A DNA stretch of 64,000 nucleotides from NCBI GenBank assembly GCA_035468985.1, contig DATISF010000028.1, positions 38,937 to 102,936 on the forward strand. The letters run 5' to 3'. The translations under genes and the position numbers were made by a program. Below are positions 2,175 through 55,853 of this stretch, in pieces. Source of the DNA: Thermoanaerobaculia bacterium (lineage in GTDB: Bacteria; Acidobacteriota; Thermoanaerobaculia; Gp7-AA8). The notes under the pieces were generated by a model. It worked only from the letters and a program-made list of their open reading frames with translations, was not told the DNA's origin and ran no database searches. How positions within the stretch are numbered: position 1 is the stretch's first letter; each line of letters starts with the position of its first letter.

Positions 2175-3430
2175 TCGGGGATTGTATCCGTGCGGTGTTC
2201 GGGGTTCGGGGTTCGGGGTTCGCTGGGCCTCTGGCCCTTCGAGCCGCGAATGACGAACACCGGCTCGCGGGCTGTCCTCGGCTGTCCGAAATAGTTGTCC
2301 ACCCTCATCGCCACGCTCCTCGCCAAGGACATGAACGTGGTCAGCTTTCCGCCGAAAACGTTGATCAGGTTGCGGGAGCGGGCCACGCGGGAGTCGCGGG
2401 ATATCGCGCTCGGGTTCGTGGCCCGGCCGACCAGCGGGCGCACGCCGGCGAACGTCGAGGCGATGCCGGCGTGCGAGATCGGCTCGCGAAAGTAGTGATT
2501 GAACCGGGCCAGCAGGTATTCGATCTCCTCATTGGACGGTTCAACGTCGTCGAGCGAATCGCGATGGACGACTTCGGTCGTCCCGACCAGCGTCGTCTCC
2601 TTCCATGGCAGGACAAAAAAGACGCGGCGATCGCTGATCGACTGGAGGAGAAATCCGACATCGCTGACGCGGCGCCTCAGGACGAGGTGGCTTCCACGGA
2701 TCAGCGACAAGACGTATCGCGCACGGATGCGGTTCTGGCGCAGGAGGTCGTTCATCCAGGGGCCGGCTGCGTTCACGACCAGGTCAAACGGCTCCTCCCC
2801 GCGAGCGGAGCGGACGACCCAGCCATCGCCGTTGCGCTGCAGCGAGTCGACACGGGTGTGCTCGAGAACCCTCGCTCCTTCCGATTCCGCGGAGGCGATC
2901 ACCGTCCGCGTGAGCGCGTAATCGTCGGCCTGCGCATCCCAGTACGAAAATCCGCCGCGCAGCCCCTCTGTGATCAGCGGACCGCGCGCGGCGATCTCGC
3001 CGGTCGAGAACGCCCGGTGCCGGTGAATGTTCTTGCGGCCTGCAAGGACGTCGTAGAGCGTCAGGCCGATGCGGATCGTGAACCGCGATCGCGGGCTGTC
3101 CTCGTAGACCGGCAGGAAGATCTCCACCGGCCGGACCAGCTCCGGCAGATGCTCCAGCAGCCAGGCGCGGTCGCGGAGAGACTCGCGTACGACGCCGAAC
3201 TGCAGATGCTCGAGGTAGCGCAGACCGCCGTGGACCATCTTCGTTGAGCGGGACGACGTCTGTGCGCCGCACTCACCCTTCTCGAAGAGCACGACGTCGT
3301 AGTCGCGGCGCGCCAGCTCCCACGCGATGCCGGCGCCATTGATCCCACCGCCCACCACGGCCACACGCTTGCGCCCTGCGGAACGTCGCGCCGCATGATT
3401 CTCGTTCGACGAAATTTTGGCAGATGCCAT
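2171..3430 (-). CDS. FAD-dependent oxidoreductase of the glycerol-3-phosphate dehydrogenase/oxidase (GlpD/GlpO-like) type
   Basis: The N-terminus has the VAVVGGGINGAGIAWELA dinucleotide fold, and a KMVHGGLRYLE motif is present. The start was trimmed to the ATG at 3430 (MASAKISS...), because the upstream part of the long ORF overlaps the divergent patatin gene. The C-terminus carries a (GGGGTTC)3 repeat. Confidence 0.65.
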   Translation of the reverse strand: MASAKISSNENHAARRSAGRKRVAVVGGGINGAGIAWELARRDYDVVLFEKGECGAQTSSRSTKMVHGGLRYLEHLQFGVVRESLRDRAWLLEHLPELVRPVEIFLPVYEDSPRSRFTIRIGLTLYDVLAGRKNIHRHRAFSTGEIAARGPLITEGLRGGFSYWDAQADDYALTRTVIASAESEGARVLEHTRVDSLQRNGDGWVVRSARGEEPFDLVVNAAGPWMNDLLRQNRIRARYVLSLIRGSHLVLRRRVSDVGFLLQSISDRRVFFVLPWKETTLVGTTEVVHRDSLDDVEPSNEEIEYLLARFNHYFREPISHAGIASTFAGVRPLVGRATNPSAISRDSRVARSRNLINVFGGKLTTFMSLARSVAMRVDNYFGQPRTAREPVFVIRGSKGQRPSEPRTPNPEHRTDTIPE

Positions 3431-3433
3431 GCA

Positions 3434-4639
3434 ATGGCTCAGTGCGTGAGCGCGCTGGAGCGCATCGTAACGGCACTGACTCCGAAGGAACAGACCGGCG
3501 ATCTGGCCGTCATGTTGACCGGGGGCGGCGCCCGAGCCGCTTATCAGGTCGGATTGCTCCTTGGCCTCGCCCGCCATTACCCGAACCTGAAATTTCAGAT
3601 CGTCACCGGCGTCTCCGCCGGCGCGATCAACGCCGCGTTTCTCGCGGCACACACGGGATCGCTCGCTCAGAAAGCGCGCGACCTGGAGCAGGTCTGGTGC
3701 GAGCTCGAATGGAGCAGCATCTGGAGCTTCGACTGGAGACGCGCGCTGCCGTTCCATTCGGCGTTCACCTCCATCTTTCCGAAACATCGATGGACGAAGC
3801 CGCAAGGCGCCGTCGACACCGCGCCGCTGGCGCGGCTGCTGTATCGCGTGATGGATGCCAGGCCCGGCCAGCCGATCCGCGGCATCGCCGAAAACCTCGA
3901 GCGCGGAGACCTGCATGCGGTCGCGGTCAATACGCTGGACTATTCGACCGGCCAGAGCGTGCGCTGGGTCCAGGGCCACCACGACGATACGTTCGAGGGC
4001 CCCAACCGGCGTTCCGTCGCCACACACCTCACGGTCGAGCACATTCTGGCCTCCTGCGCGCTGCCGTTCTTCTTTCCGGCCGTGCAGATCGGCTCGCAGT
4101 GGCACGGCGACGGAGGGATCCGTCTCGCCGCGCCGCTCTCTCCCGCCTTACATCTCGGCGCGCGCCGCGTGATCGCCATGTCCACCGGCTACCAGCGCAC
4201 GGATGCCGAAGCGTCGACACCCGTGGTTCGCGGATATCCGCCGGCAGCGCAGATTCTCGGCCAGCTGATGAACGCCATCTTTCTCGACGTCATCGACGAA
4301 GACGTCGTCCGCATGGAGCGGATGAACGACATCATCACGAAGCTCGACGCGCGCGAGCGGGACGGTCTCAAGGCCATCGATCTGCTCGTCCTACGACCTT
4401 CCGAGGATCTCGGGAAGCTGGCCACCGCGTACGAGAAATACCTCCCCCGCTACATGAAGCTATTCACCCGCGCCCTCGGCGCGAAGCAGACCGAGTCGCC
4501 CGATTTCATCTCCCTGCTGATGTTCGAGCCTCGCTACACCCGCGAGCTCATCGACATCGGCAAGGCCGACGTCGACTCCCGGATCGACGAGATCCACGGT
4601 TTCCTCGGAGATGCCGTGCCGCAAATCGCGGCTCTCTGA
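3434..4639 (+). CDS. Patatin-like phospholipase
   Basis: The protein has the GGGARAAYQVG oxyanion motif, the GVSAG (GxSxG) nucleophile motif and a DGG catalytic Asp motif. The start is taken at MAQCVSALE. Confidence 0.75.
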   Translation: MAQCVSALERIVTALTPKEQTGDLAVMLTGGGARAAYQVGLLLGLARHYPNLKFQIVTGVSAGAINAAFLAAHTGSLAQKARDLEQVWCELEWSSIWSFDWRRALPFHSAFTSIFPKHRWTKPQGAVDTAPLARLLYRVMDARPGQPIRGIAENLERGDLHAVAVNTLDYSTGQSVRWVQGHHDDTFEGPNRRSVATHLTVEHILASCALPFFFPAVQIGSQWHGDGGIRLAAPLSPALHLGARRVIAMSTGYQRTDAEASTPVVRGYPPAAQILGQLMNAIFLDVIDEDVVRMERMNDIITKLDARERDGLKAIDLLVLRPSEDLGKLATAYEKYLPRYMKLFTRALGAKQTESPDFISLLMFEPRYTRELIDIGKADVDSRIDEIHGFLGDAVPQIAAL

Positions 4640-4676
4640 CATAATCGCCGGACGAGACTTCAATCTCGGCTCTCTG

Positions 4677-5813
4677 ATGGCCGTTCTCGAGCTGGAGCTG
4701 CTTGGCGATTTCCGCATGCGCGCGGAGTCGGGCGCATTGATCAACATCTCTGCGAAAAAATCGCAGGCGATGCTGGCGTACCTCGGCGTCAAGCCTGCCC
4801 AGCTCGTCTCCCGCGACAAGATGGCCGCCCTCCTCTGGAGCAGTACCGCCACCGAACAGGCCCGGCAGAGCCTCCGTCAGACACTTTCCAGCCTGCGGAA
4901 AGAGCTCGCCCAGATCTCCAAGGACCGGAAGATCCTCGTTGAGGAAGGGGACTTCCTGTCGGTCGACCCCGATCTCGTGCAGGTCGACGTCGCCGAATTC
5001 GAAAAGGGCCTCGGATCCGGAACCGAAGAAGGCCTGGCCCGCGCGGTCTCGCTCTATCGCGGCGATTTTCTCGAGGGCTTCGAGCTCGATGAGGAGCGTT
5101 TCGACCAGTGGGTGATCGCCGAGCGCGACCGGCTGCACCGCGCCGCGCTTCGTGCCCACTCGCAACTGGTCGAGATCCAGACCCGCAACGGCGCGCGGGA
5201 CGACGCCATCGCCACCGCCCAGCAGGCGCTGCGCATCGATCCGCTGCAGGAGAGCATGCATCGCACGCTCATGAAGCTGTACATGGACAGCGGCGATCTC
5301 GTGAACGCCGTCCAGCAGTACGACATCTGCGCGCGCACGCTGAAGCGTGAGCTGCAGATCGAGCCCGATGCCGAGACGCGCAAGCTCTTTCAGCAGGTCG
5401 CGCAGCTGCGCTCGAAACGCGGTGCGGAAGGGGAACCGGCCGGCGACGAGAAGAAGCTGGTGTTGATCGTCGAGGACAACGTCCTGAACCGCGAGCTGGT
5501 CAGCGCCATCCTGACGACCGCCGGCTATCGCATCATGGTCGCGCAGGACGGGGCCGAGGCGCTGATGATGCTGGGCCGCGAGCAGATCGACCTGATGCTG
5601 CTCGACATCGATCTCCCCTACATCGACGGCCACAGCCTGCTGCGAGCCGTGCGCGAAAAAGGCATGCAGGTTCCGACGATCTTCGTTTCCGGACTTCCGG
5701 GCGAGGAGCCGGAGCTGCGTGCATTCGAAGTGGGAGCAGCGGACTTCATCCGTAAGCCGGTGAAGAACAGCGTGTTGCTCGCGCGCGTCGCCAAGGTTCT
5801 CGGCGAGCCGTAG
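4677..5813 (+). CDS. SARP/AfsR-family regulator (OmpR-type winged helix plus BTAD domain) fused to a C-terminal response-regulator receiver domain
   Basis: The N-terminus reads MAVLELELLGDFRMR...AMLAYL, which is the SARP wHTH. BTAD helices run to about residue 250. The C-terminal part has a canonical receiver: VLIVEDN, LLDIDLP, TIFVSG and a conserved K. Confidence 0.7.
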   Translation: MAVLELELLGDFRMRAESGALINISAKKSQAMLAYLGVKPAQLVSRDKMAALLWSSTATEQARQSLRQTLSSLRKELAQISKDRKILVEEGDFLSVDPDLVQVDVAEFEKGLGSGTEEGLARAVSLYRGDFLEGFELDEERFDQWVIAERDRLHRAALRAHSQLVEIQTRNGARDDAIATAQQALRIDPLQESMHRTLMKLYMDSGDLVNAVQQYDICARTLKRELQIEPDAETRKLFQQVAQLRSKRGAEGEPAGDEKKLVLIVEDNVLNRELVSAILTTAGYRIMVAQDGAEALMMLGREQIDLMLLDIDLPYIDGHSLLRAVREKGMQVPTIFVSGLPGEEPELRAFEVGAADFIRKPVKNSVLLARVAKVLGEP

Positions 5814-6260: not shown

Positions 6261-7628
6261 GCGCAGGATCGCTGCCGCGCTCCGCTCCACATCCTCCTCC
6301 GTCGTGGCCCAGTTCGAGACCGAGATTCGCATCGCCGCCATCTTATGCCAGACGGTTCCCGCCAGCCAGCACGTTCCGTCCTGCTGGACGCGGGTGATGA
6401 CGTCGCGCGTGCGCTGATCGTCGTCGCCGAAGCGGACGAGCACCTGATTCAGCGTGACGTCGTTGAGAATCCTCACCCGGTCGTCCCGTTGGAGGATCTC
6501 TGCGAACTGCCGCGCGCGATCGCAGAGCCGGTCGATGAGGTCCTCGACGCCGAGCCGGCCGAGCGTGCGCAGCGCTGCGTAGACGGAAATTCCTCGAGCG
6601 CGGCGCGAGAATTCCGGCGTCCAGTCGACGCTGTCGCGCTCCCTGCCGGTGGTCTGTTCGAGGTAGGCGGCGCTCGCGGTCATCGATGCCCGATGCGCAA
6701 CAGAATCGCGAACGATCGCCACTCCGCAGTCGTACGGCACGTTCAGCCATTTGTGCGCGTCGGTGGCCCAGGAATCGGCGAGCTCGACTCCATCGATCAA
6801 CTCGCGTTTGCGGCGGCTGGCCGAGGCCCACAGGCCGAAGGCTCCGTCGATGTGGAGCCAGGCGCCGCGCTCGCGGGTCTCCGTGGCGATCTCGCGCAGC
6901 GGATCGAATGCGCCGCTGTTCACGTTGCCGGCCTGCGCACAGACGATGGTCGGGCCGGAGAGCTTGCGCAGCGCGTCGCGCAGACCGTCCGCGCGCATGC
7001 GTCCCTGCTCGTCGGTCGGGACGTGAACGGCGTGCGTTCCGAGACCGAGGTACCGCAGCGCGACAAAGATCGTGACGTGCGACTCATCGCTGACGACGAT
7101 GTTCACTTTCGGCGCGCCCTGCAGCCCATCCTCTTCCACGTTCCAGCCGGCGTTGCCCAAAACGGCGTGCCTGGCCGCGGCCAGGCAGGTGAAGTTCGAC
7201 ATCTGGCCGCCCGTGGTGTAGCCGACACTGGCCTCGCGCGGAAGACGAAACAGATCGAGGAGCCATTCCCGCGCAACATCCTCGGCCACGGCCGCGATCG
7301 GCGAGGCCGCGTAGAGGCCGGCGTTCTGATCCCACGCGGCGACCATCCACTCGGCGCCGACGGTCACCGGGAGTGACCCGCCGATGACGAATCCGAAAAA
7401 TCGCGGTGACGGAGTCGCCATCGTCCCACGCTCGGCTGCCACCGCCAGAGCATCGAGCACCGCGGTCGCATCTTCGCCGTCATCAGAGAGGGGCACGCTG
7501 AGTGAGCGATTCAGCTCCTCCAGCGTGGCGCGAGGGCCTACGGGGCGGTCGGGAACCGCGCGGAGGAAGGTACTGGCATGTTGAAAGGCACGGCGGAGGA
7601 TTGCTTCATCAAAAATCGCTAACGGCAT
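6252..7628 (-). CDS. Group II pyridoxal-phosphate-dependent amino-acid decarboxylase, resembling diaminobutyrate or tyrosine decarboxylases
   Basis: The protein is 458 aa and contains ATDAHKWLNVPYDCG, the PLP-binding Lys region. The overall pattern matches the aspartate aminotransferase-fold decarboxylases. Confidence 0.75.
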   Translation of the reverse strand: MPLAIFDEAILRRAFQHASTFLRAVPDRPVGPRATLEELNRSLSVPLSDDGEDATAVLDALAVAAERGTMATPSPRFFGFVIGGSLPVTVGAEWMVAAWDQNAGLYAASPIAAVAEDVAREWLLDLFRLPREASVGYTTGGQMSNFTCLAAARHAVLGNAGWNVEEDGLQGAPKVNIVVSDESHVTIFVALRYLGLGTHAVHVPTDEQGRMRADGLRDALRKLSGPTIVCAQAGNVNSGAFDPLREIATETRERGAWLHIDGAFGLWASASRRKRELIDGVELADSWATDAHKWLNVPYDCGVAIVRDSVAHRASMTASAAYLEQTTGRERDSVDWTPEFSRRARGISVYAALRTLGRLGVEDLIDRLCDRARQFAEILQRDDRVRILNDVTLNQVLVRFGDDDQRTRDVITRVQQDGTCWLAGTVWHKMAAMRISVSNWATTEEDVERSAAAILRSL

Positions 7629-18349: not shown

Positions 18350-18860
18350 ATGACCAGGAACGGACGAAGCGCGCCGGCATGACGGCTGGGGAATCCTTGC
18401 GCAGGTCGTTGCTCACGTCATCCTGAGCCGCGAAGACGGCGAAGGATCTCGAAATGGTACGCGTTTTCGCATTCTGAGATCCTTCGTCGCGCTTCGCCGA
18501 CTCAGGATGACGTGAACATCCAGGGGCGGATGGCCACGGCAACGAGGGCGGCCACGACGATCGCCGACGATCGCCGCGCTCGCGGCCGGTGCAATCATTG
18601 CCCTGCTGACCAGGAACGGACGACGCGCGCCGGCATGACGGCTGGGGAATCCTTGAGCAAGTCGTTGTTCACGTCATCCTGAGCCGCGAAGACGGCGAAG
18701 GATCTCGAAATGGCACGCGTTTTCCCATCCTGAGATCCTTCGTCGCGCTTCGCCGACTCAGGATGACGTGAACATGGCCACGGCAACGAGGGCGGCCACG
18801 ACGATCGCCAACGATCGCCGCGCTCGCGGCCGGTGCAATCATTGCCCTGCTGACATGGTC
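18350..18860. repeat. Two tandem copies of a roughly 260-bp composite unit, each containing a reverse-oriented REP-like element (18396-18516 and 18651-18773) plus about 120 bp of spacer
   Basis: The segments starting with GACCAGGAACGGACGA at 18350 and 18609 are near-identical. The REP arms are GTCATCCTGAGCCGCGAAGACGGCGAAGGATCTC and GAGATCCTTCGTCGCGCTTCGCCGACTCAGGATGAC. Confidence 0.8.
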
Positions 18861-18874
18861 GCTGCGCTGCTTCC

Positions 18875-19984
18875 TCACTTCCGAATCGCTTCAGCGATGC
18901 GGACGACCTCCGACTCCATCTCCACGCCGAACTCGCTCCGAATCTCGTAGATCCAGCCGTAGAGGAGCTCGTTGAGGATGTTGTGCACGACCGCGCCACG
19001 GTCGGCCGAGCCGGACGCGATGAGATTGTTCAGCAGCTGATCGAAATCGATGCGGCCCTCATTGACGAAATTCATCCCGCTCAGGTAGGGCAGCGTCTCC
19101 GGCGAGAGCTGCAGGACCACACGGTCCATGAAGTCGTAGACGTGGTCACCGACCTTCTGAAGAACGAGGGCGAAGATCTGCTGGAACGCGGTGTTGTAGC
19201 GCTCGACGATCCCTTCGAGCTCGTACTCGGTCGCCTCGGCCTCACGCTTCTCGACGAGGTCCGCGCCGGCCGCGTCCTGCACGAGGTTGATCACCAGGAG
19301 TCCCCACAGCGTGCGGCAGGTCGAAAAGTTCGTCAGGTAGCTTCGCTTGCAGACACTTTCGACGGTTTGGGCGCTCTCGCCGAACAGCGAGAGAACGTGC
19401 CCTTCCTCGTCGTTGAGCTCCAGCTGGTAGGCGCGCGTATCGGCGCCGGGCACCTGTTCGAGAAGGCGGTCCAGTCTTCCGATGCCGCGCATGATCAGCG
19501 ACCAGAAGTCGATCGACTCCACTCCGTCCAGAACGAGACGCTCGGTCGAAAGCGGAAGGGTGATGATCTCGTCGGGAAAGTTCGACGTGAACTCGATCGT
19601 GTAACTGCCGGTCCGGTACCGCATGGCGTTGACCACGATCGCGCTCGACTGCCTCTCCACCGCGCGGCTCAGCTCCTCCGGCTTGAGGTAGCCGAGCTCG
19701 ACGAGCAGTGCGCCGATCCGCCGCGAGACGACCAGCCGGTCCATCACGTTGTTGTATTGCTGCAGATTCAGCTCGCCCGTGCGAAGCAGCGTTTCGGCGA
19801 GTCCGACGTCCTGATCGGTGGATGACGCGAAGATGATCCGCCCTTCGTTGAAGTAGATCGTGTCGTTGCGGCCGATGGCGTCGAGCGAAAGGATCGCCGT
19901 CTCGCCGGAACGGAGGATGGAACGGAAAAGGTCGGGGACAGTCGTCTCCGCCAGCGTGCCTTGAATCGAGAGTTCTTCGGACAT
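18875..19984 (-). CDS. DUF4388-domain protein
   Basis: The N-terminus, LAETTVPDLFRSILRSGETAILSLDAIGRNDTIYFNEGRIIFASS...GLAETLLRTGELNLQQ, matches the DUF4388 pattern. The start is taken at MSEELSIQ, directly downstream of the heptamer array. Confidence 0.6.
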   Translation of the reverse strand: MSEELSIQGTLAETTVPDLFRSILRSGETAILSLDAIGRNDTIYFNEGRIIFASSTDQDVGLAETLLRTGELNLQQYNNVMDRLVVSRRIGALLVELGYLKPEELSRAVERQSSAIVVNAMRYRTGSYTIEFTSNFPDEIITLPLSTERLVLDGVESIDFWSLIMRGIGRLDRLLEQVPGADTRAYQLELNDEEGHVLSLFGESAQTVESVCKRSYLTNFSTCRTLWGLLVINLVQDAAGADLVEKREAEATEYELEGIVERYNTAFQQIFALVLQKVGDHVYDFMDRVVLQLSPETLPYLSGMNFVNEGRIDFDQLLNNLIASGSADRGAVVHNILNELLYGWIYEIRSEFGVEMESEVVRIAEAIRK

Positions 19985-19986
19985 TT

Positions 19987-20045
19987 GGGATTCGGGATTC
20001 GGGATTCGGGGTTCGGGATTCGGGATTCGGGATTCGAGATTCGAG
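19987..20045. repeat. Tandem heptanucleotide array (GGGATTC) of about 8 units, with one GGGGTTC and one GAGATTC variant, filling the whole GGDEF-DUF4388 intergenic space
   Basis: The direct read is gggattc gggattc gggattc ggggttc gggattc gggattc gggattc gagattc. Confidence 0.85.
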
Positions 20046-21397: not shown

Positions 21398-22195
21398 ATG
21401 CGCATCGTCCAGATCGTTCTTCCCGCCGTCACCGCGTTCGAGGAGAAGTGCCGCCGCGTCGATCACTCGACTCTCTCCACGAGACACGAAGTCCTCGTCG
21501 CCGGACCGAAGGAACCTCTGCCCGCCGCGGATGTCGCCCACGTGTACGGCCCCGGCGAACTTCCGGCTGCTGCCTTCATCGGGTTTCGACTCCCTTATGT
21601 CGCATCCTCTGAGCCAGTTGGGCGGGCCTGGGTTCGAAAGCCGGCGCGGCCTGCCTACGTGCTGTCGCCGTTGGAGAGTCCGGAGCCGGTGGAGGAGGTC
21701 TTCTTCCAACTCGAGTCCCGAATCCCGAGCCCCGAGTCCCACGTGCTCGGATCGTTTGCGAGGTCGTCGATCGCCAACCTCATCGAGCAGACGCTGGGCC
21801 GCATTCGCCGTTTCCGCGACGATGTCGAGTGGCGGCTTTTCGAGCGCGCGCCGACGCCCGAGGATCTAGCCGGCGTAGACGCGTGGGTCGATCCTGCCAC
21901 CGCCGAGGATGATCTCGACGGCTTCGTCGCCGAGGCGCTCGTGTCGGGCAAACCCGTTGTGGCATCGAGAATTACGATCAATTTGCAGCGCCTCGAAAAA
22001 GGGCGCACCGGCTTCCTCGTTCCGCCGGGAGATCCCAACGAGCTCACTCATGCGATACTAACTGCCCTATTCAAGCCAGAGGTGGCGCGAACGAAAATTG
22101 AGGCAGCACGACAGACCGCCGGCAAGTTCCGGCCCAGGCAACGCCTTCGTCTGCTCGAGCGTATCTACGAGACCGTGATGAAGCCGTCATCCTGA
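21398..22195 (+). CDS. Truncated or degenerate family-1 (GT4-like) glycosyltransferase with an internal heptamer repeat
   Basis: The C-terminal half, FVAEALVSGKPVVASRI...GRTGFLVPPGDPNELTHAIL, is a GT4 C-terminal domain. The protein has only 265 aa against about 370 expected. A (GAGTCCC/GAATCCC) repeat lies at 21706-21733 in the middle. The 3' end runs into a REP-like hairpin. Confidence 0.4.
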   Translation: MRIVQIVLPAVTAFEEKCRRVDHSTLSTRHEVLVAGPKEPLPAADVAHVYGPGELPAAAFIGFRLPYVASSEPVGRAWVRKPARPAYVLSPLESPEPVEEVFFQLESRIPSPESHVLGSFARSSIANLIEQTLGRIRRFRDDVEWRLFERAPTPEDLAGVDAWVDPATAEDDLDGFVAEALVSGKPVVASRITINLQRLEKGRTGFLVPPGDPNELTHAILTALFKPEVARTKIEAARQTAGKFRPRQRLRLLERIYETVMKPSS

Positions 22196-22246
22196 GCGAA
22201 GCGAAGGATTCTCGTCCCCGAGACTCTTCGCTTCGCCCAGAGTGAC
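22186..22246. repeat. Short REP-like hairpin variant
   Basis: The sequence is GTCATCCTGAGCGAAGCGAAG-gattctcgtccccgagact-CTTCGCTTCGCCCAGAGTGAC. It overlaps the stop of the GT-like ORF. Confidence 0.6.
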
Positions 22247-22252
22247 GTCCAG

Positions 22253-24298: not shown

Positions 24299-24880
24299 AT
24301 GTCGTCCCTCCGAATCACGGCCGGAACCCTTCGCGGCCGCCGCATCCCTGTTCCGCGCGGCGACGTCCGACCGACATCCGAACGCGCTCGTCAGGCGTAC
24401 TTCAACATCGTCGGCGACCGGATCGCCGGCGCGAGCTTTCTCGATCTTTTCGCCGGCAGCGGCATCTTCTCGTTCGAAGCGGTGTCGCGCGGTGCGGCAT
24501 CATCGACGGCCATCGATCGCGACACGGCCGGAATTGCGAAGCAGGCCGAAGACCTCGGCGTAACCAACATCCAAACGATTGCCGGTGATGCTCTGAGCGC
24601 GCTGAAACGCCTGCCCGCCGAACGGTTCGATCTCGTCTACGCCGATCCGCCGTACGACTATGACCGCTACGGCGATCTGCTCGAAGCGATCGAAAAAATC
24701 CATCTCGCCGATGAGGCGATCGTGGCGGTGGAACACAGACGCCGCACAGATCTGTTCAACCGAGGACCGAGGAGCGGGGACCGAGGACTGAAATCTCTGC
24801 GCCGCGCCGAATACGGCGAGGTGTGGATCACGTTCTTTCAGGCTGAGACTGCCACAGGAATTGCAATGGAAAACGAATGA
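24299..24880 (+). CDS. rsmD: 16S rRNA (guanine966-N2)-methyltransferase
   Basis: RsmD motifs are present: FLDLFAGSG (SAM-binding) and VYADPPY (catalytic). The start is the ATG at 24299 just after the upstream stop. Confidence 0.8.
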   Translation: MSSLRITAGTLRGRRIPVPRGDVRPTSERARQAYFNIVGDRIAGASFLDLFAGSGIFSFEAVSRGAASSTAIDRDTAGIAKQAEDLGVTNIQTIAGDALSALKRLPAERFDLVYADPPYDYDRYGDLLEAIEKIHLADEAIVAVEHRRRTDLFNRGPRSGDRGLKSLRRAEYGEVWITFFQAETATGIAMENE

Positions 24881-26287: not shown

Positions 26288-26942
26288 CCTCCGCGCAAGT
26301 CGTCATCCTGAGTCGGCGAAGCGCGACGAAGGATCTCAGGATTCGAAAACACGTGCCATTTCGAGATCCTTCGCCGTCTTCGCGGCTCAGGATGACGTGA
26401 ACGACGACTTGCGCAGAGGTCCACAAGTACTGCTGTGGCACGGTAAGTACTGCTGTGGCCGCGGCGCAGCACATCGATCTTCTCTCGCATATGACGGTGT
26501 CGCACTTCGCATCGCTGTTCAGGGATGTCCCCTAGGGAAGCTCTGCACAAGTCGTTGATCACGTCATCCCGAGTCGGCGAAGCGCGACGAAGGATCTCCG
26601 GATGCGATAACGCCTGCCATTTCGAGATCCTTCGCCGTCTTCGCGGCTCAGGATGACGTGAACGACGACTTGCGCAGAGGTCCACAAGTACTGCTGTGGC
26701 CACGGCAAGTACTGCTGTGGCCGCGGCGCAGCGCATCGATCTTCCCTCGCATATGACGGCGCTGCACTTCGCATCGCTGTTCAGGGATGTCCCCTAGGGA
26801 AGCTCTGCACACGTCGTTGATCACGTCATCCTGAGTCGGCGAAGCGCGACGAAGGATCTCCGAATGCGACAACGCCTGCCATTTCGAGATCCTTCGCCGT
26901 CTTCGCGGCTCAGGATGACGTGAACAACGACTTGCGCAGAGG
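26288..26942. repeat. Tandem array of three REP-like elements (26288-26419, 26539-26680, 26802-26942) separated by two near-identical roughly 115-bp spacers
   Basis: The period is about 250-260 bp. The spacers contain the internal direct repeat AAGTACTGCTGTGGC twice. Confidence 0.85.
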
Positions 26943-26946
26943 TCGA

Positions 26947-28092: not shown

Positions 28093-28150
28093 CTCGTAAA
28101 GGGTTGTGAATTATAACGTTTGGACGTTTACTAGCGGGCCTGGGTCCCGG

Positions 28151-28219
28151 CTCCTCGGTTCTCGGTCGAGAATTGGTTCGGGGGAAACCGAGGACCGAGG
28201 ACGGGAGGACCGAGGACCG
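28151..28219. repeat. Inverted repeat built from CGAGGAC-type heptamers in the divergent DUF4388/mcm promoter region
   Basis: The left arm is CTCCTCGGTTCTCGGTCG. The right arm is CGAGGACCGAGGACGGGAGGACCGAGGACCG. Confidence 0.5.
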
Positions 28220-28223
28220 CTGC

Positions 28224-29825
28224 ATGTCAGACACGAAAGAAAAATCGCCAAGGACCACCACCAGCGGCATCGAGCTCCCCGTCTATTTCGACGAGATCGC
28301 GCTCCATGAGCGCGGCTTCGATCCGCAGGCCGATCTCGGCGTCCCCGGCTCATTTCCGTACACCCGCGGTCCGCAGGCATCGATGTACCGGGGCAAGTTG
28401 TGGACCATGCGGCAATACGCCGGATTTTCCACGGCCGCCGAGTCCAACCAGCGCTATCGCTACCTGCTCGAGCGCGGGACGACCGGACTCTCGGTGGCGT
28501 TCGATCTGCCGACGCAGATCGGGATGGACTCCGACGATGTGCGCGCGCGCGGCGAAGTCGGCAAGGTCGGCGTGGCCATCGATTCGATCGACGACATGGA
28601 GGCGCTGCTCGACGAGATCCCACTCGACCGCGTGTCGATCTCGATGACCATCAACGCGCCGGCGTCGATCCTGCTGTCGCTGCTGCTCGTGGTCGCGGAA
28701 CGGCGCGGGATCGCCTGGTCGAAACTCAACGGCACGATTCAGAACGACATCCTGAAGGAGTACGCCGCGCGCGGGACGTACATCTTCCCACCCGCTCCGT
28801 CGATGCGCATCGTGACCGACATCTTCGAGTTCTGCGCGAAGGACGTGCCGCGCTGGAACACGATCTCCGTGTCGGGCTATCACATCCGCGAGGCCGGATC
28901 GACGGCGGTGCAGGAAGTGGCGTTCACCCTGGCCAACGGGCTCGAGTATGTTCGCGCCGCCGTCGCGCGTGGGCTCGACGTCGACTCGTTCGCGCCGCGC
29001 ATCTCGTTCTTCTTCAACGCCCACAACGATTTTCTCGAAGAGGTGGCGAAGTTCCGCGCCGCGCGAAAGCTGTGGGCGAAACTGATGCGCGAGCGGTACA
29101 ACCCGAAAGACCCGCGCTCTCTGGCCCTGAGATTTCATGCGCAGACCGCCGGCTCCACGCTCACCGCACAGCAGCCGGAGAACAACGTCGTCCGCGTCGC
29201 CTACCAGGCCATGGCCGCCGTCCTCGGCGGCTGCCAGTCGCTGCACACGAACAGCCGCGACGAGGCGCTGGCGCTTCCGACGGAGGAATCGGTGAACATC
29301 GCGCTGCGGACGCAGCAGGTGCTGGCGTACGAGACCGGCGTGGCGGCGACCGCGGATCCGCTGGCCGGCTCCTACGCCGTCGAGTCGCTGACGCTCGACA
29401 TCGAGCGCGGTGCGGCGGAGCTGATCGAGCGCATCGACAAGCTCGGCGGCGCGATTCACGCGATCGAGAGCGGCTTCGTGCAGAACGAGATCGGCGAGTC
29501 GGCGTACCGGGCGCAGCGGGCCATCGAGGAGAAGCAGGCCATCGTCGTCGGCGTGAACGAGTTCACCGAAGACGGACAGAGCACGCTGCCGATCATGGTC
29601 ATCGACGAGAGCGTCGAGCGCGACCAGGTCGCGCGACTGCAGGCGTTCCGTTCAAAACGCTCGCGCGACTGGAAAGGCGCCCTGGAAAAACTCGACGCCG
29701 CGGCACGATCGAAAGAGAACCTCATGCCGCGTATCGTCGACGCCGTCCGCAACGAATGCAGCGTCGGCGAGATCGTGTCGACGCTGAAGAAGACGTTCGG
29801 CGAGCATCGGGAACAAAGCTTCTGA
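28224..29825 (+). CDS. Methylmalonyl-CoA mutase-family large (catalytic) subunit without a fused B12-binding domain
   Basis: The conserved MCM TIM-barrel motifs are present: FPYTRG...[15 protein letters not shown], the [14 protein letters not shown] stretch, and [13 protein letters not shown]. The protein is 533 aa and stops before the usual C-terminal cobalamin-binding Rossmann domain. Confidence 0.85.
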
Positions 29826-36860: not shown

Positions 36861-36868
36861 CTAAGGAA

Positions 36869-37010
36869 CCTCCGCGCAAGTCGTCGTTCACGTCATCCTG
36901 AACCGCGAAGACGGCGAAGGATCTCGAAATCGCGGCGTCTTGCGCATCCTGAGATCCTTCGTCGCGGTTCGCCGACTCAGGATGACGACTTGTGCAGAGG
37001 TTCTGTCTCA
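36869..37010 (-). repeat. REP/MITE-like palindromic element in reverse orientation
   Basis: The sequence is CCTCCGCGCAAGTCGTCGTTCACGTCATCCTGAACCGCGAAGACGGCGAAGGATCTC...GAGATCCTTCGTCGCGGTTCGCCGACTCAGGATGACGACTTGTGCAGAGG. Confidence 0.85.
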
Positions 37011-41454: not shown

Positions 41455-41546
41455 CGGTCCTCGCTCCTCGCTCCTCGGTCCTCGGTTGGTTCCGAGGAGC
41501 ACTCCCAGACCCACACGGCCGGTCGGCTCTCCTGAACTCTCTCCGC

Positions 41547-41790
41547 ATGAACCAAATGAGCTCCGACCGCAATTTGCAGGTTTGGCAGTTGAGTGGCGTC
41601 CTTACAAAGGATGGTTACGCATTGACGGATGCATTTCCAGGGTCCGAAGTCTTCGGCCTCAGCGTGCAGATGCGTCGGGCCGCCGCATCAATCATGTGCA
41701 ACATAGCAGAAGGACAGGGACGATGGTCTGCGCGCGATCAGTGCCACTTCTGCTCGATCGCTCCTAGCACGCGGAGCCGAAATCCCGTGG
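41547..41790 (+). pseudogene. Truncated four-helix-bundle protein of the '23S rRNA intervening-sequence protein' / DGR Avd-like family
   Basis: NLQVWQL...FPGSEVFGLSVQMRRAAASIMCNIAEGQGRWSARDQCHFCSIAPSTRS matches the family core (KVWQ...FGLTSQxRRAAVSIPSNIAEG...F..IA.GS). The last helix is missing. The reading frame then runs out of frame into the next gene. Both sides are flanked by CGAGGAC-type repeats. Confidence 0.45.
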
Positions 41791-41832
41791 ACCGAGGACC
41801 CAGGGCCGAGGACTGGATACAATCCCTCCCGC

Positions 41833-50661: not shown

Positions 50662-51357
50662 GTGTCTTTGCCCGTCACGGTGATCATCGCCGCGCGGAAC
50701 GAGGAGGAGGCCGTGACGGCGGCCGTGCGCTCGGCATTCGAGTCCGGCGCCGCGGAGGTCATCGTCGCCGATGGTGGAAGCACTGATCGCACGCGCCAGG
50801 CTGCCGCATCCGCGGGCGCACGCGTGATCGAATGCCAGCCGATGCGCGCCCGCCAATACAACCGGGCCGCGGAGACGGCAGCGAACGAGGCCCTGGTCTT
50901 TCTCCACGCCGACACATTGCTGCCAGCCGGCGCAGGGGCGGCGGTGCTCGACGCGCTGCAACGCGCGCCGTTCGGAGGTTTTCGCCTCCGCTTCGCCGAA
51001 CAGGCGTGGAAACTACGGCTCGCGGCATTCCTCATCAATCTCCGCACACGTCTCACGCTCTCTCCGTGGGGCGATCAAGCGCAGTTCATCCGCCGCGCGA
51101 CATTCCTTCGCGACGGCGGCTTCCGGGAGATTCCGCTGATGGATGACTACGAGCTCGCCGTGCGCATGCGGCGCCGCGGCCGGCCGATCGTCCTCCCGCT
51201 CACCGTGATCACCTCCGGCCGTCGCTTTCTGCGCCTCGGCCTGCTGCGCACCACCGCGATGAACTGGACGATCGTGATCGCGTGGCGGTTGGGGGTTTCG
51301 GAGGAGAGGCTGGCTGGCTGGTATCGGGAACGGGAGAACGGGAATGGTGAATGTTGA
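50662..51357 (+). CDS. Family-2 glycosyltransferase (TIGR04283-like)
   Basis: The N-terminus, VIIAARNEEEAV, the LHAD motif and overall GT-A features match a family-2 enzyme. Confidence 0.65.
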   Translation: MSLPVTVIIAARNEEEAVTAAVRSAFESGAAEVIVADGGSTDRTRQAAASAGARVIECQPMRARQYNRAAETAANEALVFLHADTLLPAGAGAAVLDALQRAPFGGFRLRFAEQAWKLRLAAFLINLRTRLTLSPWGDQAQFIRRATFLRDGGFREIPLMDDYELAVRMRRRGRPIVLPLTVITSGRRFLRLGLLRTTAMNWTIVIAWRLGVSEERLAGWYRERENGNGEC

Positions 51358-51375
51358 ATGCGATCAATTCACCAT

Positions 51376-51411
51376 TTCGCATTCGACATTCGACATTCCA
51401 CATTCCCGTCT
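51376..51411. repeat. Tandem heptamer array of CATTCGA, ACATTCG and ACATTCC units (GAATGTC/GAATGTG on the other strand)
   Basis: The read is cattcgacattcgacattccacattccc, directly downstream of the TPR and GT2 gene ends. Confidence 0.6.
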
Positions 51412-53744: not shown

Positions 53745-55102
53745 TGCCTTCTCCGGCGGCGCTTCCTGACGGGAGGGCCGCTTTCCTCCTGTGCCTTCCG
53801 CACGCGCTGCGCGAAGGAGTTCCACTGGCGGAATTGCTCGACATACTTGCCGGACGAGAGCGCGTACAGCTCGAGCAGCGCCAGCGCGTCATGGAACGGC
53901 TCGCGATAGATGAAGCGAAACAAAGCGCGGCGATCGGAGGGCGGCTCGAGCAGGCGCCAGAACGTCTCCAGGGCCTGTTCGATCTGATGGCGCGCGCCGG
54001 CCGGCAGCGCCATGCGCGCGCACACCGGCTGCACGAGATCGCGGATGAACAGCAGGACCTCGCCGATGCGCATTCGGCCCTGTCGGCGCTGCTCTTCCCG
54101 TTCGAGCTCTTCGACGATCCACGGCAGTAGCAGAACCGACAGCAGCACCGGATCGGAGACCTTGCGTCCCGATTGCACGGTGCGGTCGAGCACCTCGAGC
54201 ATTTTCCAGAAGTACGGCGTGCGCTCACCCTCGATCGCGCGATAGACCTCGGGCAGAAGAGGCTCGAGCAGGCGCGTCTCCACGAGCAGCCGTAATGCGC
54301 CGCGCGACCATCCCCGGCGCAGCAACTCCAGAATCTCTTCGGAAACGCGAGGAGGAGAAGCCTTCAGGATGTCCGCGCGGTGGCGGAGGATACCCTCGTA
54401 CGTCGCGGGCTCGATCGCGAATCGCAGCCGCGAGGCGAATTCGATTGCCCGCATCATCCGCACCGGATCTTCGCGGAAGCGAACGTCGGGATCGCCGATC
54501 ACGCGAACCAGACCCTCGTGGATGTCCTCGAGACCGCCCACGTAGTCGAGCACGGAGAAATCGGCGATGTTGTAGAAGAGGCCGTTCATCGTGAAGTCGC
54601 GTCGACGAGCGTCCTGCAGCGGCGTGCCGAACGTGTTGTCGTCGGTGACGAGGATGTCGTCCGTGTCCTCAGCGCTGCCGCGCTCCGGCTCGCGCCGGAA
54701 CGTCGCCACCTCGACGATCATGTCCTGAAAGATCACGTGCACGAGGCGAAAGCGCCGGCCGATGATCCGGCTGTTGCGGAACAGACGGCGGATCTCGGCA
54801 GGATGCGCATCCGTGGCGATGTCGAAATCCTTCGGCGTCCTCGCCATCAGCAGATCGCGCACGCTTCCGCCGCACAGGTAGGCTCGATATCCGCTGCGGT
54901 GCAGGCGGTAGAGGACCTTCAGAACGTTTTCAGGGATCTGCCGGCGCGAGATCGGGTGATCGCTCCGGTCGACGACGACCGCGTCTTCCTCGGGCCTCGG
55001 GCTTCGGGCCTCGGGCCTCGGTTCGCCTTCGTCGGATTCGTCGTGGACGGCTCCGAGGCCCGAGGCCTGAGGCCCGAGGCCTGCTTTTTCACTCGGACTC
55101 AT
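53741..55102 (-). CDS. pcnB: Poly(A) polymerase I
   Basis: RRQIPENVLKVLYRLHRSGYRAYLCGGSVRDLL...PKDFDIAT...IGRRFRLVHVIF...EVATFR matches the PcnB pattern. The first about 30 codons contain a long inverted heptamer repeat. Confidence 0.75.
   Translation of the reverse strand: MSPSEKAGLGPQASGLGAVHDESDEGEPRPEARSPRPEEDAVVVDRSDHPISRRQIPENVLKVLYRLHRSGYRAYLCGGSVRDLLMARTPKDFDIATDAHPAEIRRLFRNSRIIGRRFRLVHVIFQDMIVEVATFRREPERGSAEDTDDILVTDDNTFGTPLQDARRRDFTMNGLFYNIADFSVLDYVGGLEDIHEGLVRVIGDPDVRFREDPVRMMRAIEFASRLRFAIEPATYEGILRHRADILKASPPRVSEEILELLRRGWSRGALRLLVETRLLEPLLPEVYRAIEGERTPYFWKMLEVLDRTVQSGRKVSDPVLLSVLLLPWIVEELEREEQRRQGRMRIGEVLLFIRDLVQPVCARMALPAGARHQIEQALETFWRLLEPPSDRRALFRFIYREPFHDALALLELYALSSGKYVEQFRQWNSFAQRVRKAQEESGPPVRKRRRRRH
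54987..55082. repeat. Long inverted repeat of heptamers, (CCTCGGG)4-5 ... (CCCGAGG)4, inside the 5' coding region of pcnB
   Basis: The left arm is CCTCGGGCCTCGGGCTTCGGGCCTCGGGCCTCGG, and the right arm is CCGAGGCCCGAGGCCTGAGGCCCGAGGCCTG, its near-exact reverse complement. The predicted stem is about 30 bp with a roughly 30-nt loop. Confidence 0.7.
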
Positions 55103-55853
55103 AAGGGCTACCACTGTCCTGAATCTCAGGGGTGAAGTGGTACTTGCTGTCGACGATGAAGAACGTCCGCTGCCAGCGGGTGCGATCGAAGAAGTGGATG
55201 ACCACATTGAGCAGCTCGCGCGCGCGATCGGCAGGCGGACTGCCAGGGGGAGGCGGCTCGCCGCGGAACGACCAGTACACCATGAACGCGCGGCCTTTGA
55301 TCATCGATCGCGGCACCGTGCCCCAGTAGCGCGAGTCGCTGGAGCGATCGCGGTTGTCTCCCATCGCAAAGTACGAATGCGGTGCGACCGTGTAGGGCCC
55401 GAACTGATCGCGCGATCGGTACGGCTCCGGGAGGGCGGGTTGCCGCGGGTACATCGTCGGGTCGACGTGAATCGTGTATGGCTCGTTGAGCTTGTTGCCG
55501 TTGACGAACACGTTCTTGTCCCGGACCTCAACGACGTCGCCCGGCATGCCGATGACACGCTTCACGAAGTCGGTGTCGGGCTGAAGCGGATAGCGAAACA
55601 CGATGATGTCGCCGCGTCGTACGTCGCGGATCGGGAACAGTCCCGACAAAGGGCCGAGGCCGTTCGGGCCGTAGATGAACTTGTTGACGATGATGTGGTC
55701 GCCGACCTTGAGGTTGTCTTCCATCGATCCCGTCGGGATCTTGAACGCCTGGAAAACGAAGATGCGGGCGAAGTTGACGAAGATGACCGCGATCAGCAGG
55801 GCTTCGTAGTACTCGCGGGTCGTTGACTTCTTTACGGTCTCATCTGTGGCCAC
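55089..55853 (-). CDS. lepB: Signal peptidase I
   Basis: An N-terminal TM segment is present. Box motifs are GSMEDNL, KRVIGMPGD and GDNRDRSSDSRYWG. Confidence 0.85.
   Translation of the reverse strand: MATDETVKKSTTREYYEALLIAVIFVNFARIFVFQAFKIPTGSMEDNLKVGDHIIVNKFIYGPNGLGPLSGLFPIRDVRRGDIIVFRYPLQPDTDFVKRVIGMPGDVVEVRDKNVFVNGNKLNEPYTIHVDPTMYPRQPALPEPYRSRDQFGPYTVAPHSYFAMGDNRDRSSDSRYWGTVPRSMIKGRAFMVYWSFRGEPPPPGSPPADRARELLNVVIHFFDRTRWQRTFFIVDSKYHFTPEIQDSGSPYESE

Follow-up and report, generated by a model that had tools for sequence, protein, structure and literature searches.

Background

Simple sequence repeats (SSRs) with a unit of seven nucleotides are over-represented in bacteria, and in Xanthomonas about 185 arrays of the unit GGGAATC have been described, with 70-75 convergent inverted pairs whose pair type is kept between species (PMC4692102). 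One of these inverted pairs, with 4+4 GGGAATC units, sits in the lepA-lepB spacer of Xanthomonas campestris (XCC1270-XCC1271), 2 nt past the lepA stop and 17 nt before lepB (supplementary repeats 63 and 64; PMC4692102). Among the Xanthomonas and Nostoc heptamer pairs generally, position and single or paired type are kept between species, and length and sequence vary (PMC4692102). Here we describe an inverted pair of heptanucleotide arrays at the junction of lepB and pcnB in a 64,000-nt stretch of DNA (hereafter the window) from a Thermoanaerobaculia bacterium of the phylum Acidobacteriota (assembly GCA_035468985.1, contig DATISF010000028.1, positions 38,937 to 102,936), where it is predicted to form a long hairpin in the 5' end of pcnB, the gene for an enzyme of the poly(A) polymerase I family. 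The X. campestris pair has the same architecture, beside the same gene family in a distant phylum.

Hairpin repeats of the REP/BIME kind are dispersed past stop codons and between cistrons and have been associated with a protected upstream mRNA and with unequal expression of genes in one operon (malE-malF); the REPs are single imperfect palindromes with a family consensus, extragenic and tied to RAYT transposases. The STRR heptanucleotide repeats of cyanobacteria were reportedly described by Mazel et al. in 1990. Correction of quasipalindromes by template switching and slipped-strand mispairing are known mutational mechanisms in bacteria. Escherichia coli keeps its poly(A) polymerase I (PAP I) at a low level by means of a non-canonical AUU start codon, and PAP I preferentially adenylates 3' ends that finish in a stem-loop. 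Arrays of the direct repeat TAACTGA lie shortly before start codons in Beggiatoaceae, Cyanobacteria and Bacteroidetes, and for these arrays, described mostly at gene borders, a post-transcriptional role has been suggested (PMC4679880).

Our analysis of the window and of related loci led to an explanation of the lepB-pcnB hairpin that we consider probable: it consists of inverted heptanucleotide microsatellite arrays that are translated as a dispensable insert, and these would, as we infer, be maintained at the DNA level and act as a barrier between two cistrons. As part of the same explanation, the hairpin would be one member of a class of period-7 arrays found genome-wide in this lineage of Thermoanaerobaculia.

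Results and Discussion

Structure and translation of the hairpin

The two genes and the parts of the hairpin, as they lie in the window (G+C 63.6%), are as follows.

55089 to 55853, minus strand: lepB (signal peptidase I), the upstream cistron; Peptidase_S26 176 bits, TIGR02227 165 bits
53741 to 55102, minus strand: pcnB (poly(A) polymerase I family), 453 aa; TIGR01942 334 bits, PolyA_pol and PolyA_pol_RNAbd domains
55053 to 55081, minus strand: 5' arm of the mRNA hairpin, (GGCCTCG)x4, pcnB nt +22 to +50, encoding GLGPQASGLG
55022 to 55052, minus strand: loop of 31 nt, encoding AVHDESDEGE, hypervariable among orthologs
54988 to 55021, minus strand: 3' arm of the same hairpin, (CGAGGCC)x4 followed by a further unit; it encodes PRPEARSPRPEE and pairs over 54993 to 55021

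The TIGR01942 score of the pcnB product lies above the cutoff of 305.65, and the presence of both the head (PF01743) and the RNA-binding (PF12627) domains assigns it to the PcnB family, within which the A-adding and CCA-adding activities are indistinguishable here. An identical 453-aa protein is annotated at NCBI from a Thermoanaerobaculia metagenome-assembled genome, and the position of the start matches the placement by gene callers on 10 related contigs. This start, ATG at 55102-55100, precedes the last base of the lepB stop TGA (55091-55089) by 14 nt, an overlap that a first-pass annotation of the window had read correctly. Because pcnB starts 14 nt before the lepB stop, the hairpin falls inside pcnB codons 8-37.

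The hairpin is an inverted repeat with arms of 29 nt each at 55081-55053 and 55021-54993, separated by the 31-nt loop, so that it spans nt +22 to +110 of pcnB and its stem starts 7 nt past the lepB stop. The first-pass annotation had proposed a perfect stem of roughly 30 bp within the first 35 codons; a 29-bp stem starting at +22 is indeed present in the 5' end of the gene, but it reaches to codon 37 and is nearly perfect rather than perfect, with 27/29 pairs (93%) and two mismatches, C.A and A.C in the mRNA, both of which become G.U pairs on the antisense strand. The arms had been described as being of the CCTCGGG/CCCGAGG type within a low-complexity N-terminus, and Tandem Repeats Finder (TRF) indeed reported period-7 arrays of CCTCGGG (4.9 copies, 54988-55021) and CCGAGGC (4.1 copies, 55053-55081) with 90-92% matches; in the mRNA, (CGAGGCC)4 occupies pcnB nt +82 to +110, with one more unit beyond. 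Folding of the 97 nt from 54988 to 55084 (minus strand) as RNA gave -71.4 kcal/mol, compared with -42.3 +/- 3.8 kcal/mol for dinucleotide shuffles (z = -7.7, with 0/200 as good), which is in keeping with the very stable hairpin that had been expected, and folding of the same segment as DNA gave -41.6 kcal/mol (z = -7.4). Apart from an unrelated palindromic repeat family, this is the strongest short-range inverted repeat in the window.

Several identities for the hairpin were tried and rejected. A mobile element with a conserved core was ruled out, the loop having no second copy within the 64-kb window. Rfam gave no match in the window at gathering score, which speaks against a curated RNA family, and the only matches at the locus at E <= 1 were sub-threshold hits of generic hairpin (miRNA) models. 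A Rho-independent terminator on the sense strand was rejected as well, there being no U-run where the sense strand continues as CGAGGAAGACGCGGUCGUC.

To judge from its reading frame, the hairpin is translated, as a low-complexity insert in the variable N-terminal linker of PcnB, because frame 0 is free of stops in 27/27 orthologous hairpins (the other two frames nearly always contain stops), no downstream start would preserve the core of the protein, and the gene calls agree. The window and most orthologs have no in-frame ATG, GTG or TTG downstream of the hairpin until core codon +36 is reached, which rules out a PcnB start downstream of the hairpin that would make it a 5' untranslated or intergenic element. 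A start at core codon +36 would remove the conserved segment ISRRxIPENVLKVLYRLHRSGYRAYLCGG. An MSPNEK-like N-terminal peptide is common to orthologs with and without the insert. For annotators, the implication is that an N-terminal extension of low complexity, such as GLGPQASGLG...PRPEARSPRP, can be a palindrome of the nucleic acid that is translated, and not a feature of the protein.

Comparison with known repeats

The pcnB hairpin shares the architecture of known heptamer repeats and differs from them in the phylum, the diversity of units, the translation and the clustering at the borders of one gene. Like the heptameric SSR pairs of Rehm et al. 2015 (Xanthomonas GGGAATC, Nostoc GGGGA(C/T)T), it consists of 7-nt units, typically in 4 copies, arranged as convergent arrays able to form a stem-loop at a gene border. 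Such pairs have at least 2 and typically 4 tandem copies, and here there are 4.9 and 4.1; their convergent, stem-loop-forming arrangement is seen in the 29-nt arms 31 nt apart; and their excess of period 7 is found in the 713 kb made up of the window and 96 related loci, where 52 strong arrays have period 7 and no other period between 4 and 12 reaches more than 6. The known pairs are intergenic, whereas the pcnB hairpin lies inside a coding region, in codons 8-37, though only 7 nt past the lepB stop. The unit is also different, GGCCTCG being a poor former of G-quadruplexes compared with the G-rich GGGNATC type; G-tract-rich units (GGGGAGT, GGGRGTC) occurred only in a second clade of orthologs, described below. 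Whereas the pairs of Rehm et al. 2015 are built on one dominant G-rich unit, those of the class Thermoanaerobaculia in the Acidobacteriota have many units, and clustering at both borders of one gene is not reported for the former. A literature search found, among the papers it covered, no account of heptamer repeats in Acidobacteria or Thermoanaerobaculia.

The cyanobacterial STRR/TAACTGA arrays resemble the arrays of this lineage in being of period 7, dispersed and located at gene borders, often a few nt from a start codon, and a (CGAATCC)x8.7 array of the window that ends at an ATG matches the layout of the TAACTGA arrays. They are unlike the pcnB hairpin, an inverted pair forming a long hairpin, in being mostly direct arrays of one unit and mostly intergenic. 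The family consensus palindrome of REP/BIME elements was not found, as the loop is unique in the window and the units differ between sites and between genomes; the hairpin was rejected as a REP element for this reason, neither its loop nor its unit being common to other copies. The E. coli pcnB gene belongs to the same family, and its product is likewise presumed to have to stay scarce; its 5' end folds unremarkably (z = -1.3), and no repeat is annotated next to it. The window gene uses an ATG overlapping the upstream gene where E. coli uses AUU.

Distribution among orthologs

Ortholog DNA came from genomes (16 loci), from metagenomes (80 loci) and from 10 further loci fetched singly; the metagenome loci are, among the matches listed, relatives with 71-82% identity, and the 10 singly fetched loci are the closest relatives. 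PcnB homologs at 75-91% identity were abundant. The N-termini of the orthologs formed two groups, one without an insert and one with inserts that read as a three-frame translation of heptamer arrays, and the spacing between the lepB stop and the conserved core was bimodal, at 41-100 nt without arrays and 118-188 nt with inverted arrays, with about twice the folding energy per nucleotide in the latter group. A hairpin or array at the 5' site of pcnB, taken as the 250 nt before the core, was present in 29% of 87 dereplicated loci. The hairpin was absent from about 70% of orthologs. The first-pass annotation had suggested comparing the pcnB 5' regions of relatives and had held that a lack of the repeat in orthologs would speak against it; the comparison revealed the hairpin, with compensatory changes, in a minority of loci, and the repeat is lacking in most orthologs but not in all.

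Four types of unit were distinguished among the hairpins at this site.

Type A: unit GGCCTCG, in the window clade
Type B: unit GTCCTCG, in the window clade
Type C: unit GGGGAGT, in the second clade
Type D: unit GGGRGTC, in the second clade

The two hairpin clades are separated by many clades without a hairpin, and in both of them the stems start 5-12 nt past the lepB stop. Several members of the window clade carry one-armed, shortened or deleted versions. Since many relatives do without it, the hairpin appears to be dispensable. The peptides encoded at the hairpin site by the other unit types were VLGPRSSVLG/EDRGPRTED, NGEWGVGSGEW/PTPHSPLPTP and NRGSGVGGRESE/SPTPDTRPPTPE. Among the hairpin-free orthologs, those at loci L019, L065, L066, L070, L075 and L081 often had a short single-arm array, (CAGCGAG)x3-4, in the N-terminal linker, encoding SEQRAASGE-like peptides.

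Concerted change of the two arms

For the type A and B hairpins, 89% of the cells of the alignment were paired and six pairs showed changes on both sides, including G-C to U-A at four heptad-periodic positions. The double-change cells numbered 17, compared with 6.8 +/- 1.7 in shuffles (0/500), so that the compensatory changes across orthologs expected of a conserved cis-regulatory RNA are present; four of the six double-changed pairs represent the same position of the repeat unit, so these are not independent events. The strand-specific signal of such an RNA was not found: the sense strand was the more stable one in 12/28 loci, G.U pairs numbered 57 on the sense and 66 on the antisense strand, and there was across the 28 loci no strand asymmetry that would point to selection at the RNA level.

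The types A and B are not separate lineages, because A- and B-type sisters were joined at 100% bootstrap twice, as L104 (A) with L105 (B) and L098 (A) with L099 (B). For L104 and L105 the identity was 99.6% in the pcnB core (1150 nt) and 96% in lepB, and only 72.7% across the hairpin. Between these two loci all eight units have been flipped in compensating fashion and the loop rewritten with 3-nt indels, with frame and pairing kept; an inversion of the loop was looked for by eye only, and no reverse-complement similarity was seen. The hairpin region is thus a hypervariable island in near-identical genes, in which the two arms change together while the loop and the unit type turn over much faster than the flanking genes. 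Based on these data, the paired change is not the signature of a conserved RNA, since the two strands fold equally well, the A and B types interleave, and the hairpins of L104 and L105 diverge beside a near-identical core.

We suggest that the complementarity of the arms would be kept mainly by processes acting on DNA, such as slippage within the arrays, template switching from arm to arm, or conversion from other copies of the same unit, and that selection would merely remove versions that are out of frame or contain stops. Quasipalindrome correction and slippage would keep arms complementary without strand-specific selection and the units within an array alike, as is seen here, and are candidate mechanisms for this locus; unlike these features, a flip of all eight units at a kept frame and length is not obviously explained by them.

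Period-7 arrays in the window and in related loci

Besides the pcnB hairpin the window contains at least eight further period-7 arrays. Outside the pcnB 5' end, 76 arrays were counted, many of them inverted pairs. The unit CCTCGGN occurred at five sites of the window (16 hits compared with 1.3 expected). The arrays at 28152, 41455 with 41785, and 24759 belong to one repeat family with the pcnB arms, and those at 19983 and 2193 are related to it. The arrays of the window are these.

28152 to 28219, plus strand: CCTCGGT/ACCGAGG hairpin ending 5 nt before the ATG of a methylmalonyl-CoA mutase gene; -56 kcal/mol for 28130-28235
41455 to 41486, plus strand: array of the CCTCGGT type with its inverted partner at 41785-41811; the pair flanks a divergent intergenic region beside an FtsX/MacB permease gene
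41785 to 41811, minus strand: the inverted partner of the array at 41455-41486
24759 to 24788, plus strand: single array (ACCGAGG)x4.3, upstream of a phoH-like gene
19983 to 20043, minus strand: array (CGAATCC)x8.7 filling the whole spacer from the stop of a GGDEF gene to the ATG of a DUF4388 gene, without an inverted partner
51338 to 51409, strand unspecified: (GAATGNN)3 / (NNCATTC)4 hairpin between convergent genes; -41.8 kcal/mol
2193 to 2222, minus strand: array (CGAACCC)x4.3 in the last codons of an FAD oxidoreductase gene, just before its ATGA overlap with a DUF480 gene
21712 to 21740: single array (CGAGTCC)x4.1 that appears inside, or at the start of, a glycosyltransferase ORF

No functional theme was apparent among the genes beside the other arrays of the window (DUF480, FAD oxidoreductase, DUF4388, GGDEF, glycosyltransferase, PhoH, methylmalonyl-CoA mutase, FtsX, GT2 and TPR). 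Because the same array class adjoins unrelated genes, the hairpin is probably not a pcnB-specific device, and we infer that it represents a more general type of intercistronic barrier found elsewhere in the genome.

No Shine-Dalgarno sequence is visible in the 60-nt spacer filled by the array at 19983-20043, which is predicted to be almost unstructured (-2.9 kcal/mol). For the glycosyltransferase open reading frame at 21712-21740, the Pfam match starts at model position 59, downstream of the array, and the gene may be split or carry a translated array. The window also holds a palindromic repeat family that is unrelated to the heptamer arrays and has the motif CGTCATCCTGAG...CTCAGGATGACG, with GAAGGATCTC/GAGATCCTTC as its inner stem. 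It was seen at 26301-26944, 1366-1418, 18395-18533, 18666-18774, 22185-22247 and 36866-37003, both dispersed and as a tandem of 2.5 copies of a 262-bp unit (95% matches); an element similar to it fills the spacer after pcnB at locus L099.

Repeats at both borders of pcnB

About 35% of the dereplicated loci have a heptamer array within 500 nt past the pcnB stop, and all other bins within 4 kb of pcnB together contained 12 arrays in 430 kb (about 0.03 per kb). The 3' hairpins start 0-10 nt past the pcnB stop, sometimes including the stop itself, and occupy the spacer as far as the next ATG, that of a gene for a class-V aminotransferase (cysteine desulfurase-like, Pfam Aminotran_5). The units at this 3' border are of at least 14 kinds. 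In the window clade, 9/14 loci have some repeat in the post-pcnB spacer, be it heptamer or octamer arrays or the unrelated palindromic repeat; the window's own pcnB has no 3' hairpin or repeat in that spacer.

Near-perfect heptamer hairpins past pcnB were seen in L003 (7246-7309), L005 (6386-6540), L021 (3998-4082), L034 (5345-5445) and L036 (1601-1685), and further ones in L037 (5398-5495), L056 (2940-3021), L069 (5323-5416), L101 and L103. All of these begin at or within 10 nt of the pcnB stop and end from a few to about 45 nt before the next ATG, with a different unit each time, and several of these units include the pcnB stop codon itself (TGAGTCC, TGAGGAC, TGAAAAT). Inverted arrays of 8-nt units, GGGACGCT/AGCGACCC and GTCGCCGG/CGGCGACC, take the place of 7-nt units in the post-pcnB spacers of L001 (about 7368-7435), L104 (about 1972-2045) and L105 (about 2646-2730), and in L100 (2208-2290) an array of (TCAGTTC)x11 directly past the pcnB stop has no inverted partner and little predicted structure. 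In L021 the same (AGCTCTT)/(AAGAGCT) hairpin occurs twice downstream of pcnB, at 3998-4082 and 4604-4681, about 600 nt apart, which suggests duplication or mobility of a whole hairpin.

Possible effects on expression

On the mRNA of lepB and pcnB, a stem of -71 kcal/mol would act as an intercistronic barrier. Because the stem begins 7 nt past the UGA, a ribosome terminating at lepB would reach its base and need not melt it, and a ribosome initiated at the pcnB AUG would have to unwind the whole helix within the first 37 codons. The 29-bp near-perfect duplex would also be long enough for cutting by RNase III and might stop 3' exonucleases. Overall, the shared transcript would yield less PcnB than LepB, which could be a tolerated by-product or could be mildly favoured, poly(A) polymerase being wanted at a low level. 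A role of the hairpin in tuning pcnB expression is plausible in principle.

These considerations bear on the two functions that the first-pass annotation had put forward, a throttling of pcnB translation and a site of RNase entry or protection. For the former, the hairpin is translated and begins just outside the footprint of the initiating ribosome, so that a GC-rich helix of about 70 kcal/mol would have to melt, and to this extent an effect on pcnB is credible; the idea of a dedicated regulator of pcnB fared less well, the array class being genome-wide, equally frequent after the pcnB stop, lacking in most orthologs, free of strand bias and hypervariable. For the latter, the duplex is a plausible substrate of RNase III, but an RNase role specific to pcnB found no support.

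Alternative explanations

A dedicated pcnB regulator, in which selection on the mRNA throttles PcnB synthesis or keeps an RNase entry or protection site specific to pcnB, seems to us unlikely. The extreme stability of a stem at +22, its occurrence in two clades with compensatory changes, A-type arms that are less variable than synonymous sites, the enrichment of arrays at the lepB-pcnB junction and the precedent of the AUU start of E. coli PAP I would all fit with it. They have to be set against the hairpin-free majority of orthologs, the repeated loss or decay in the closest relatives, a sense strand with no folding advantage and no G.U excess in a hypervariable island, and the recurrence of the same architecture beside unrelated genes and past the pcnB stop, with no Rfam match. 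We are similarly doubtful that the hairpin is purely neutral or selfish DNA, a palindromic microsatellite that persists since the linker tolerates insertions and that has no selectable effect on expression. Its fast and strand-symmetric evolution, the frequent losses, the genome-wide class and the complete difference of the encoded peptides between unit types are what such a view would predict, but tolerance does not explain why arrays occupy the two pcnB borders in about 29% and about 35% of loci compared with about 3% at other junctions within 4 kb, and a helix of -71 kcal/mol in codons 8-37 is unlikely to be invisible to ribosomes. The concentration of heptamer, octamer and REP-like repeats at the two borders, with the many units of the 3' border, and the preference of PAP I for stem-loop 3' ends instead recall insulation or self-regulation, in which stable flanking stem-loops set the ends of processed pcnB mRNA and poly(A) polymerase itself tags these ends for decay, giving negative feedback or uncoupling from the operon neighbours. 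We hold this to be quite improbable, as many orthologs are hairpin-free on both sides, the window's own pcnB has no 3' hairpin, and the comparison covers about eight neighbouring junctions, all pcnB-centred. A wider form of the idea, for which we see only a slender chance, is that in Thermoanaerobaculia fast-evolving hairpins have been recruited to both pcnB borders, where they would insulate the cistron and let PcnB tail the hairpin-ended products of its own mRNA, and that they are renewed by a concerted, frame-keeping DNA mechanism.

The remaining alternatives can be given very little credence. An intrinsic terminator of the plus strand, which would end antisense transcripts running through pcnB, was considered since this strand forms, at 54988-55095, a stem of 31 uninterrupted pairs, including 2 G.U, with -84.3 kcal/mol, followed by UGCUUUUUCAC; a pattern scan flags part of the structure. 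The T-run, however, belongs to the codons for Glu-Lys (GAAAAAG), orthologs such as GAGAAAGCA, GAGAACTCA and GACAAATCG do not share it, and there is no plus-strand gene or promoter-like site upstream. It is hardly more credible that the locus is a phase-variable contingency locus at which 7-nt slippage switches pcnB on and off by frameshift. A tandem repeat in the 5' coding region whose unit length cannot be divided by 3 is the textbook layout for this, but the 27/27 hairpin alleles in frame come from independent assemblies, and the arrays are short (4 units) with a copy number nearly constant within a type. A function of the repeat peptides (GLGPQASGLG ... PRPEARSPRPEE) at the protein level is likewise very improbable; although the segment is translated and the peptide is conserved in the A-type group, other unit types encode unrelated peptides at the same site, many orthologs have no insert, and base-pairing alone is common to all the unit types.

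We return to the explanation that we favour, of DNA-maintained inverted arrays translated as a dispensable insert, against which several observations must be weighed. The barrier effect is argued from position and folding energy. The enrichment of arrays at both pcnB borders was roughly tenfold in loci aligned on the conserved core, with the sampled junctions being those near pcnB, and a purely passive element does not explain it. The loop was 31 nt long in 7/8 A-type genomes even though 26/31 of its sites were variable, and such a fixed length could mean selection on structure. Finally, among seven A-type genomes the third codon positions varied at 5/18 sites in the arms compared with 70/95 in the pcnB core (Fisher p = 3e-4), which could mean selection on structure beyond DNA-level maintenance; the test is weakened by the choice of genomes for sharing a unit and by repeat units not being independent sites. 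Arm length was constant, and copy number nearly so, within the A-type group. The third-position deficit is best read as reflecting discrete unit states and as an artefact of choosing same-state genomes, and purifying selection on the arms was downgraded as a reading because sister genomes carry opposite unit types, with 73% identity in the hairpin beside 99.6% in the core.

Conclusions

The over-representation of heptameric repeats in bacteria is long known, and neither their function nor the mechanism of their origin has been established. The lepB-pcnB junction offers an unusually clean natural experiment in this respect, with no hairpin, decayed hairpins and hairpins of four units across more than 80 related genomes, among them one near-identical pair whose difference lies essentially in the hairpin alone, and the preservation of the reading frame serves as a built-in filter on the hairpin versions that survive. 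The two points worth pursuing are the clustering at the pcnB borders and the concerted rewriting of the two arms. The pcnB hairpin makes it possible to test by what route a repeat palindrome comes to have its two arms rewritten together, what draws such hairpins to both borders of a single gene, and whether hairpins of this kind set the ratios of expression within operons, here for an enzyme that is kept scarce.

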